From positions 58,528,001-58,592,000 of the forward strand of contig OX597832.1 in the NCBI GenBank assembly GCA_951406725.2: DNA of 64,000 bases, given 5' to 3'. Below the pieces are notes generated by a model. It ran no database searches and had not been told where the DNA came from. It was given only the letters and a program-made list of their open reading frames with translations. Origin of the DNA: Octopus vulgaris (taxonomy: Eukaryota). Shown here piece by piece: positions 6,993 through 39,522 of the stretch; within the stretch, counting starts at the first letter, position 1; each line of letters begins with the position of its first letter. The position numbers and the translations under genes are program-made.

Positions 6993-7153
6993 GGCGCAGG
7001 AGTGGCTGTGTGGTAAGTAGCTTGTTTACCAACCACATGGTTACGGGTTCAGTCCCACTGCGTGGCATCTTGGGCATTGGCTTCTACTATAGCCTCGGGC
7101 CGACCTAAGCTTTGTGAGTGGATTTGGTAGACGGAAACTGAAAGAAGCTCATC

Positions 7154-7194
<41 letters not shown>

Positions 7195-7461
7195 TGTGTG
7201 TGTGTTTGTGTGTGTGTTTGTGTGTGTTTGTGTGTGTGTGTGTGTGTGTGCGTGTGTTTGTGTGTGTGTGTCCTAAGAGCGTTTGACAAGCGACGCTGGT
7301 GTGTTCACGTCCGCGTAACCTAGTGGGTCCGTAAAAAGACCGATAGAATAAGTACTAGGCTTACACGGGAATAAGTCCTGGGGTCGATTTGCTCGACTAA
7401 AGGTGGTGCTCCAGCATGGCCGCAGACAAAATGACTGAAACAAGTAAAAGAATAAAAGAAT
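6993..7461 (+). mobile_element. tRNA-derived SINE, family A, full length
   Basis: GGCGCAGGAGTGGCTGTGTGGTAAG (A-box), GGGTTCAGTCCC (B-box), CORE-like TGGCATCTTGGGCA, internal (TA)n(TG)n, tail GCTCCAGCATGGCCGCAG..TGACTGAAACAAGTAAAAGAATAAAAGAATA. Confidence 0.9.
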
Positions 7462-7567
7462 ATGGGGACGGCGGTGTATGTGGGGATTTATTTGCTATTC
7501 ATTGTGCAGTTTTCAAAGATTGTCATTCATTCAGCATGTTTATAGATAGTAGTACATTTGTTAATTG

Positions 7568-7760
7568 AAAAAATTATTAGTTCTAAATACCTGTCCGATA
7601 AAAATGCAGTAACAGTACTCTAAAATAAAGATTATTTGCTAACATAATGTGGTAGTCCTGATTAGGACGAATGTTACTGATATTTATCCCCAGAAAACAT
7701 CGTCTCCAGCTGGTTACCGACGCGCTATGTGCGTCATTATGTTTTCTAAGAACGGAGGTA
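7568..7760 (-). mobile_element. Diverged copy of the four-way-junction element (structured core 7607-7679)
   Basis: Aligns with ~34230-34413; outer stem CAGTAACA/TGTTACTG versus CAGCAACA/TGTTGCTG. Strand inferred from the 34016-34413 copy. Confidence 0.75.
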
Positions 7761-33429: not shown

Positions 33430-34015
33430 ACAAGGACTTAAAGTCACGTCGGTAGATCCCCCCACACACATCTGCACGTGAAGATTCAATTGATGTGAAG
33501 ATAGAAAGACCCAGTGTGGATCAATTCAGTGAGCTGGTGGGCGGTGGGTGTGGGTGTGGGGGCATTTACGGGAAATTAATTCTTGAGAGGAAGCAGAAAA
33601 TGAAGAGTCTGAGATATGCATTCCAAGAGTTATGGAATGGATAACATGTGTGATAGAGGTGGGCGAAAGAAAGAGTGTGGACCAATAATTGGAGAGTACC
33701 AGAACACTGTGAATAAGAGAAGTGGACGCTTGCACACATGAGCAAAATCAGGTGGTCTGCGAGAATAAGTGCGGAAGTGAATTAAATAGTGGAGTTTTTC
33801 TATGAATCTTTCTTCTGCATATTCGACGAAGGACTATCTCCGCAACGTCTTGCTTTTTGTCTTCACTTTCCCTTTTTAACATGTTTCTTTTTCGAGTATT
33901 ACTACGAAGATTTAATGCTTTTGTGTTTGAGTTCATCGTTTGTTATTGATTTGGAATATATTTTAATCGGTAGGACAAATAATTAGAGGTATAGAAGTAT
34001 AACTAAAGGTATTAA

Positions 34016-34413
34016 GTAAAGATTGTTTGCCAACATAACATGGCAGTCCTGGTTTAGGACGAATGTTGCTGTAATTTAGCCCCAGGAGACATTGTCTCCA
34101 GCAGGCTATACGACACGATCTGTGTCCCTATATTTTCGAACAAGGGAATCTAGCACCCCCACTCGGCTCTAAACAATATCTGTGTATCACGATTTACGGG
34201 TTATGAGCTGAGTGAGGGTGCTAGATTCCCTTGTTCGAAAATATAAGGACACAGATCGTGTCGTATAGCCTGCAGGAGACGATGTCTCCTGGGACTAAAT
34301 TACAGCAACATTCGTCCTAAACCAGGACTGCCATGTTATGTTGGCAAACAATCTTTACTCCAAAGTACTGTTGCTGAATATCTCTCGTTGTGAGATTTAC
34401 AAATAGTAATTTT
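34016..34413 (+). mobile_element. HHR-less PLE-like element: 154-bp inverted arms, 55-nt tail, 13-bp target-site duplication
   Basis: Arms 34016-34169 / 34205-34358 (six mismatches); CTAAAGGTATTAA at 34003-34015 and 34414-34426. Confidence 0.85.
34303..34413 (+). ncRNA. Putative structured RNA: four-way junction plus 3' hairpin and possible pseudoknot
   Basis: CAGCAACA-TTC-[GTCCT AAACC AGGAC]-T-[GCCA TGTTATGT TGGC]-AAACAAT-[CTTT ACTCC AAAG]-TAC-TGTTGCTG..[TCTC GTTGT GAGA]..ATAGTAATTTT; compensatory changes in two other copies. Strand not certain. Confidence 0.55.
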
Positions 34414-34568
34414 CTAAAGGTATTAAACTTCGGAATATTTGCAAACAAGTTTAGTAATCCTATTCTCTAGCATCGTCGTGAAATATAGTTTATCGTAGTT
34501 CATGATGTTTTCTCACCAACACAAAAGTTTTACAACGCGGTTTCAATATCTGAACACGAAGAACGCAT

Positions 34569-38545: not shown

Positions 38546-38598
38546 TGTATGAATGCATGCAAGCATGTATGTCTGTATATATATAACAAAGTATGAAT

Positions 38599-38768
38599 AT
38601 TAATTGTTATCGCCATATTAATATGGCAGTCTTATAGATATAAGACTAAGCTGATTAATCAGCGACAGCTTTAGTCTTATATCTATAAGACTGCCATATT
38701 AATATGGCGATAACAATTAATTTCCAGTAACGTTGCCGTAATCTCTTTTAGAGAGACATAGTAATTTT
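38599..38768 (+). mobile_element. Second family of the four-way-junction element with inverted arm (core 38660-38738)
   Basis: Palindrome ~38599-38721; CAGCGAC..[GTCTTATA..TATAAGAC]-T-[GCCATAT TA ATATGGC]-GATAACAAT..GTAAC-GTTGCCG..[TCTC..GAGA]..ATAGTAATTTT; possible AATATT target-site duplication. Confidence 0.7.
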
Positions 38769-39522
38769 AATATTTCTATTAAAGTATGAATATATGTATG
38801 TATAAACACATACACACACACACACACACACACATACACACATACATACACATACACATATACATACATGCATATAAACTACGTGAATATCTGGATATGA
38901 ATACGTATGTGTGCATGTATGTATGGTCTGTAAATATTATTGGCGTGAACATTCTACGTTTGTAAGTAAAGATATACAGCAAGCATTTAGAGATCAATGG
39001 CTTACGGCAAAAAATTGGGCTATCCTGGAACAGTATTACACACACATACACATTCCCTAGCGTGTTATCTATAGATTAGTGATGATCTACCTCATATACG
39101 CGTTCATGCTAATCTCTCTCTTCTACACCAGCTAAGAACGACACGTCAGTTCGGTTTAATTGTTTTGCGTTGTCTACCGTGCCGGTGACGCCGTACCATG
39201 GTCTTGGCTATGATGGATAAAAGAAACTTCAGAACGGTATAATACTTCTGAGAAAGGTGTGTCCGACAAAGGAGAAATATTTTTCTGTTCAGGTCACGTG
39301 GATATATTGATTAGGCAGTGGCAACAATTCTATGAATGTATGTATGTATGTATGTATGTATGTATGTATGTATGTATGTATGTATGTACGTATGTACGTA
39401 TGTATGTATGTATGCATGTATGTATGTATGTATGTATGTATGTATGTATGTATGTGTATGTGTGTATGTATGTATGTATGTATGTATGTGTGTGTATGTA
39501 TGTATGTATGTATGTTTAGTGA

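Follow-up and report, generated by a model that had tools for sequence, protein, structure and literature searches.

A truncated, inverted retrozyme copy in Octopus vulgaris and the folded 3' domain that holds the twin copy ends of its family

The insertion and the unit it comes from

The window analysed here is a stretch of 64,000 nucleotides of the Octopus vulgaris genome, and the insertion of interest occupies its positions 34003 to 34426. The features of this insertion, and of related copies in the same window, are as follows.

34003..34015, strand not applicable: left target-site duplication of 13 bp, CTAAAGGTATTAA
34015..34204, minus: inverted arm, unit positions 112-301 of an intact 353-nt unit, 3' end at site B (blastn against the natural unit in locus L023, 92.6%)
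34179..34204, minus: 3' half of a type I hammerhead (helix II 3' strand, palindromic helix III, helix I 3' strand)
34200..34417, plus: sense arm, unit positions 142-359, 3' end at site A (94.5% to the L023 unit)
34247..34297, plus: upstream hairpins Pa (34247-34262), Pb (34266-34270 with 34292-34297) and Pc (34275-34289)
34303..34376, plus: P1 (34303-34310 with 34369-34376), enclosing P2, P3 and the linker
34314..34328, plus: P2, variable
34329..34346, plus: P3, GCCA-N8-TGGC
34347..34368, plus: linker, 23-24 nt; P4 pairs here only in the window's subfamily
34355..34360, plus: site B, preferred copy end just past the conserved TYAC in the linker, +13 to +15 from P3
34383..34395, plus: P5 hairpin, YYTC-N5-GAGA
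34410..34417, plus: site A, second preferred copy end, +68 to +76 from P3
34414..34426, strand not applicable: right target-site duplication, CTAAAGGTATTAA; its CTAA overlaps the element's own end
7566..7756, minus: decayed, 5'-truncated subfamily 1b copy ending at site A (homologous stretch 7566-7690)
38588..38793, plus: subfamily 2 insertion with a 13-bp duplication (38588-38600 / 38781-38793)

The body of the insertion (34016-34413) measures 398 bp and is made up of two arms, one inverted and one in sense orientation, with a tail of about 55 nt on one side. An earlier note on this DNA had recognised the inverted-arm-plus-tail layout and a 13-bp duplication, and both are present, with CTAAAGGTATTAA at 34003-34015 and again at 34414-34426, where its first 4 nt (CTAA) are also the element's own end. 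Of 30 family-1 loci, 5 have 13-bp duplications adjoining the two ends, and several others have shorter ones; families 2-5 are mostly located in (TA)n.

The same note had described the element as lacking a hammerhead. There is indeed no CTGANGA in 34016-34413, but the family is not hammerhead-less, as families 1, 1b and 2 carry hammerheads and the window copy itself keeps part of one. Because the hammerhead was broken inside by truncation, only its 3' half remains, on the inverted arm. The CTGATGA half is gone at the inversion junction, TAAA stands in place of the GAAA of intact copies, and the predicted cleavage site falls between 34185 and 34184 on the minus strand. The sense arm starts about 11 nt past the hammerhead cut site. 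Since the orientation of the hammerhead fixes it, the functional RNA strand is the plus strand of the tail-bearing arm. Judged by its sequence, the window element derives from a very abundant, hammerhead-carrying mobile repeat of about 355 bases, of which it is a copy both truncated and inverted.

The divergent family that had been placed at 38660-38768 is represented there by a related copy (38652-38778, plus), within an insertion whose short inverted arm (38594-38646, minus) ends at B and whose sense arm (38652-38780) ends at A. The copy reported at 7568-7679 is also related (7566-7690, minus), but it is decayed, with P3 and the tail hairpin broken (z = -0.68). Abundant SINE-like repeats at 7000-7140 and 7280-7450 of the window are presumably octopus SINEs.

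In the 2.8 Gb of genome searched, full copies are tandem head-to-tail units with periods of 341, 353, 354, 359 and 364 nt (353 nt in family 1, 364 nt in family 2), and arrays reach 9-11 units. No ORF belongs to the unit, which closes on itself after about 355 nt. The expectation that extending copies 5' would lead to an autonomous ORF was disappointed, as no RT/GIY-YIG ORF belonging to the unit was found, and an autonomous Penelope-like element (PLE) is ruled out on these grounds. An intact hammerhead lies about 257 nt upstream of the common end and has the layout CTGTG-CTGATGA-helix II-GAAA-TCGCGA-TA/CACAG. Its CTGATGA..GAAA sequence is present in 10 of the 30 family-1 loci (a sample for which the best 40 of 2,919 first candidates were scored) and in 4 of 20 family-1b loci, most of the remaining family-1/1b copies being truncated downstream of the hammerhead position. 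A U3-A8 core variant, known from PLE hammerheads according to the available text of Cervera and de la Pena 2014 (PMC4209133), is found in 16 of 30 family-2 loci. These calls in families 1, 1b and 2 are descriptor matches with helix I/II pairing, and subfamilies 3, 4, 4b and 5 were read by eye. A type I core is present in every subfamily read to that position, so the proposal that the 3' fold stands in for a missing hammerhead is not supported. Rfam gave a single sub-threshold hammerhead match (HH9, 31.2 bits vs 52). Covariation between families is seen in helix I, and all the helix III sequences are palindromes (TCGCGA, CGCG, CATG, CTAG, CCATGG, CTCGAG), a property reported in the available part of PMC4209133 for hammerheads thought to work as dimers.

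The 5' ends of copies scatter: of 245, 38 lie no more than 15 nt from the hammerhead cut, and another 55 extend beyond the reference. There being no clear peak at the cut, the idea that 5' ends mark hammerhead cleavage is not supported, and the scatter suggests that the templates were largely uncut multimers or circles. A closed contig of 390 nt (359+31) was obtained from runs that we guess to be RNA; a tandem array fits it equally well.

Several side observations concern these units. Just past end A, the family-2 spacer (L034:1250-1310) holds a second hammerhead-like remnant (TTGAAAA, hairpin, GAAA, CTAG), which is possibly a degenerate second hammerhead for dimeric folding; the position of its hairpin is kept in other subfamilies. 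Subfamily 3 (L204-L227, the G000 C2 arrays) is very young: its 359-nt units are 100% identical and stand in arrays with as many as 9-11 members. Inverted arrays flank these, and the ends at A and B lie in (TA)n. The strand at its P2 position is C-rich and may instead find a partner upstream. Words of this subfamily are found in sequencing runs labelled as six further organisms (runs X14-X20; shares 0.30-0.81), which points to close relatives sharing the family. At L373:1040-1830 on the minus strand, a hammerhead-free tandem array repeats the 5'-truncated domain plus (TA)n seven times in units of 119 nt. We rejected this as a minimal mobile unit, because it includes the TA target and an identical truncation and thus indicates local duplication. 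Other type I hammerhead families, unrelated to the retrozyme unit, occur at L054, L201, L079, L084 and L164, and one of them is at the 3' end of a second GIY-YIG PLE family.

By definition, and going by the sequence, the element is almost certainly an animal non-LTR retrozyme, and it is likely a non-autonomous PLE. The Penelope-type origin suggested earlier is borne out by partial tandems, an inverted 5'-truncated arm, a one-sided tail and a variable target duplication, all of which are present. Hammerheads in families 1, 1b and 2 rule out a hammerhead-less Naiad/Chlamys derivative, and a MITE, with its fixed terminal inverted repeats, is ruled out by arms of variable length whose end sites differ (A vs B) and which many copies lack. 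A tRNA-derived SINE was rejected on the ARAGORN result of 0 genes in 7 of 7 loci, a search in which decayed heads could be missed. The retrozyme class itself is already known. In the available text of Cervera and de la Pena 2020 (PMC7229834) and Li et al. 2026 (10.64898/2026.07.22.740005), animal non-LTR retrozymes are, like ours, non-coding tandem units of about 350 nt with one type I hammerhead each, ranging from monomers to multimers and co-occurring with PLEs; mussel units measure 350-390 bp. The same text describes no conserved 3' domain, fixed twin ends or inverted A+B insertions. Cephalopods are unmentioned in the main text of PMC7229834, and the sample of Li et al., as far as their available text goes, is mostly vertebrate.

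The folded 3' domain

The 3' domain has the size of a compact RNA element (about 110-170 nt). Structure extends beyond it to the whole unit, which also contains Pa, Pb and Pc, and a near-invariant TGGRGCTA stands directly after these upstream hairpins. The shared-core pattern of the domain has 14,354 matches in the genome against 6 for a reversed control, and a second pattern has 15,011 against 12, with some copies matched in both orientations. A covariance model built on families 1, 1b and 2 also matched two further families that were present by chance in fetched loci.

The fold that the earlier note had drawn for the last 111 nt (P1/P2/P3/P4 and the TCTC/GAGA hairpin) is indeed predicted, with z = -3.86 on the plus strand and -2.54 on the minus strand. 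Its conservation was assessed in 28 natural copies from 12 subfamilies, hand-picked for a full domain, among which subfamily identity is 48-87% (median 65%). P1 is Watson-Crick in 82 of 84 subfamily cells and has three double-changing pairs, and the compensatory P1 change seen in the window is real at the subfamily level, as a C-G to T-A double change. A strict scan of 8,545 gap-free column pairs asked that all 12 subfamilies be Watson-Crick and that two or more pair types occur; it replaced a looser one with G-U allowed, which had given 158 mostly noisy pairs. Five column pairs pass, and 4 of these 5 fall within the 30 proposed pairs (hypergeometric p = 6e-10, kinship ignored), one of the four being already known from the initial reading of the window. 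At the copy level, double changes fill 87 cells, against a shuffled value of 29.3 and no more than 18 for slid controls; counted by pairs, however, the 13 that carry a double change do not exceed the shuffled data, as 60 of 500 shuffles reach that figure. Double changes occur in 5 of the 6 pairs of the upstream hairpin Pc. The idea of a selected structure is upheld by this covariation in P1 and Pc, with P1 covarying strongly in the subfamily-level alignment under statistics that ignore kinship.

The remaining stems differ in how well they are kept. P3 is found as GCCA-N8-TGGC in 28 of 28 copies, but it was part of the selection pattern and so is not independent evidence; its four core pairs never vary, and a fifth is T-A, A-T or T-G. 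Linker length stays at 23-24 nt in 27 of 28 copies while the linker sequence drifts. P5 is paired in 89% of cells with zero double changes, and subfamilies 3 and 5 have a weak P2 or none (local fold of subfamily 3, z = -0.41). The four-way junction is not a conserved feature, as P4 is paired only in subfamilies 1/1b (19 of 48 subfamily cells Watson-Crick, 45.5% of cells). The double change in a loop-tail pseudoknot also fell away on wider sampling, since among 20 subfamily-1b copies the tail A is present in 19 and the loop reads TTACT in 11 and TTATT in 7, and across subfamilies there is no common loop-tail register.

The unpaired junction positions vary and show no obvious catalytic core. This lack of an invariant unpaired core, and the lack of any Rfam ribozyme match over the domain at E <= 10, E <= 5 or E <= 1, count against the new ribozyme that had been proposed, and on present evidence the domain is not a new ribozyme class. 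With the window copy and other subfamilies as queries, Rfam returned only sub-threshold miRNA/sRNA matches from palindromes and microsatellites. Outside the genome, 3 viral-contig matches to the domain, none of which scored with the covariance model, and 100 metagenome matches, of which the 80 examined had a best nhmmer E of 0.03, are taken as chance.

Two copy ends and their pairing

In all five mapped groups, with overlapping loci kept in, the 3' ends of copies form two clusters. Site B lies 13-18 nt past P3, just beyond the conserved TYAC in the linker, and site A lies 59-77 nt past P3 (+59 to +63 in subfamilies 3 and 4). The distance between them, about 55 nt, is the tail (about 45-60 nt), which is longer than the 30-40 nt reported for PLEs. 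No copy end was found near the next hammerhead cut (about +200) in the five mapped groups. When family-2 copies were picked on P3 alone (n=29), 13 ended at B and 12 at A, 4 read through and none ended elsewhere. The non-inverted insertions (n=25) are divided in the same manner, with 13 ending at B, 11 at A and 1 at another site.

The two ends are combined in the inverted insertions. Among 93 of these there are 77 A+B, 5 A+A, 1 B+B and 10 unclassified, which puts A+B at 77 of 83 classifiable cases (93%), where independence of the ends predicts about 41 (p = 4e-17). Most inverted loci came from tail-containing queries, which forces one A end but leaves the scarcity of A+A unexplained; where the selection did not use the tail, A+B accounts for 16 of 19 inverted insertions. 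Within an insertion the two arms resemble each other more than arms of different insertions do in subfamily 2 (1.95% difference vs 5.05%) and subfamily 2b (8.3% vs 11.9%; permutation p < 0.0002 in each), and in subfamilies 1 and 4 the likeness is not significant (p = 0.13 and 0.16). Gene conversion could also produce such likeness. The twin copy ends in a conserved 3' domain and their A+B pairing are new here. In the literature searched, mostly non-subscription, we found no paper describing the 3' domain, an octopus retrozyme or the A+B rule, and the repeat may be catalogued in Repbase/Dfam.

How the two ends could arise

The closest experimental parallel is the Poseidon PLE. As reported in the available text of Frangieh et al. 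2024 (PMC11167929), its protein nicks and extends both strands, two internal starts bound the genomic tail, and RNA downstream of the hammerhead is needed while hammerhead cleavage is not. The octopus 3' domain is in the place equivalent to this start region, and we therefore infer a dock for a PLE RT-endonuclease. By sequence and analogy, the domain is probably an RNA docking element that sets two internal reverse-transcription starts (B and A) for a Penelope-type RT-endonuclease acting in trans. The RT-recognition motif that the earlier note had offered as an alternative is supported circumstantially, in that copy ends coincide with the conserved domain. Under the docking reading, tandem units would be transcribed and the enzyme would nick the target with a stagger of about 13 bp, often in (TA)n. 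Each nick would prime cDNA on the same source RNA (a multimer or circle), with A as the start for one and B for the other. If both cDNAs grew long and were joined at microhomology, an inverted arm plus tail would result; if only one was productive, the outcome would be a plain copy that ends at A or B. The role of the hammerhead would be to process multimers, and copy ends would be set independently of it. Priming at the two staggered nicks would, we infer, be coordinated.

The Poseidon element PAc of the green anole resembles the octopus family in its two internal ends downstream of the hammerhead that bound a tail, in its AT-rich targets and in a hammerhead cut that does not define the ends. 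PAc, however, is autonomous and starts in an AC-rich stem-loop 111-118 nt into its ORF, whereas the octopus element has no ORF and its sites lie about 170 and 225 nt past the cut, in a covarying multi-stem domain (PMC11167929, available text). Naiad/Chlamys PLEs and derivatives such as MRC1 share the inverted 5'-truncated arm, the one-sided tail and the microsatellite targets, but the available text of Craig et al. 2021 (PMC8557442) describes them as without canonical hammerheads, and the octopus family has one. In the supplement of that paper TGGRGCTA occurs in 7 places, none with the domain by eye; Hydra-1_Obim, from the same supplement, ends about 35 nt past its hammerhead without the domain.

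A partner enzyme was sought among 6,136 GIY-YIG PLE candidates in the genome, of which the best 150 were scored. In 51 GIY-YIG ORF loci, the covariance model and nhmmer found the domain only as two separate retrozyme insertions, and in 219 motif-bearing loci, tblastn and a long-ORF scan found only independent neighbouring PLE ORFs in separate insertions. The absence of a domain-bearing autonomous element from these two sets counts against docking.

The search also turned up a young PLE (L272:3787-8394, L172/L271) that we call Neptune-like, by eye, from its CxxxxCxxC linker and a domain order compared with Craig et al. It has many intact 781-aa frames with RT plus GIY-YIG at the C terminus, unlike the retrozyme, and a separate upstream frame of 378 aa. 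Like the retrozyme, it has (TA)n targets and two 3' ends enclosed by a predicted stem, and its U3-A8 hammerhead has a CATG helix III as in subfamily 2. The ends lie at +70-73 from the cut in 18 rows (two of which are one locus) and at about +106-110 in 6, within a predicted 13-bp stem that has the ATG of the upstream frame in its 3' strand. An intact element in the same genome, with two ends about 35-40 nt apart and insertion in (TA)n, counts for docking. Against it, the Neptune-like PLE lacks the 3' domain by nhmmer and its end region has no detectable sequence likeness to the domain; the invariant P3 core, a P5 without double change and a P2 that is weak or absent in subfamilies 3 and 5 also count against it.

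Other routes to two ends deserve consideration. The first, which we regard as rather unlikely, is that priming occurs only once, at A, and that the cDNA folds back and copies itself before an endonuclease resolves the product at B, which would then be a cut or stop site, with the domain read as DNA. This would account for the excess of A+B and for variants common to both arms, the available text of Craig et al. (PMC8557442) ascribes the tail to endonuclease-mediated resolution, and the counts of G-U vs A-C (16 vs 10) favour RNA weakly. However, it leaves unexplained that plain B-ended copies are as common as A-ended ones (13 vs 11), and an inverted tail remnant, a short one, was present in just 1 of 12 B-only loci inspected. 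Less probable again, though still worth noting, is that the fold is kept for RNA stability, circularisation or host-protein binding and that A and B are set by local sequence (TYAC, the AU-rich tail, TA microhomology). The whole unit is structured (Pa, Pb, Pc) and not the domain alone, the ends overlap TA-rich target sequence, and P2 and P4 are dispensable, all of which would fit; yet the P3-to-B spacing (13-18 nt) and the linker length are held despite sequence drift, and independent sites would give the 41 or so A+B cases of the calculation above and not the 77 observed. Finally, we think it very improbable that the domain is a second, new self-cleaving ribozyme making RNA 3' ends at A and B for ordinary end-primed copying, since, tightly clustered as the ends are and compatible as the missing Rfam family match is with a new class, the unit already has a hammerhead, the junction linkers are variable with no invariant catalytic core, the two alternative ends show several-nt scatter and frequent read-through, and a protein-driven two-site start has already been demonstrated for a relative.

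Returning to the docking element, a more specific arrangement is conceivable, although we would not quite lean toward it. In this arrangement a single RNA scaffold, conserved throughout the retrozyme superfamily of 14,000 copies, would offer its two starts, which lie 55 nt apart, to both active sites of a dimeric Penelope RT-endonuclease, with coordinated, asymmetric priming of both nicks. If true, it would be the first defined cis-element for the recruitment of a PLE enzyme by animal retrozymes, and the tail and inverted arm of PLEs would follow from a single mechanism. The mobilisation of retrozymes and the origin of the inverted arm and one-sided tail of PLEs have so far been approached in one in vitro system. 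What the octopus family offers is an RNA element that is supported by covariation and exists in natural variants, together with two mapped ends and the 93% A+B rule. With a very young subfamily of 100% identical arrays and an intact candidate enzyme in the same genome, the mechanism becomes directly testable.
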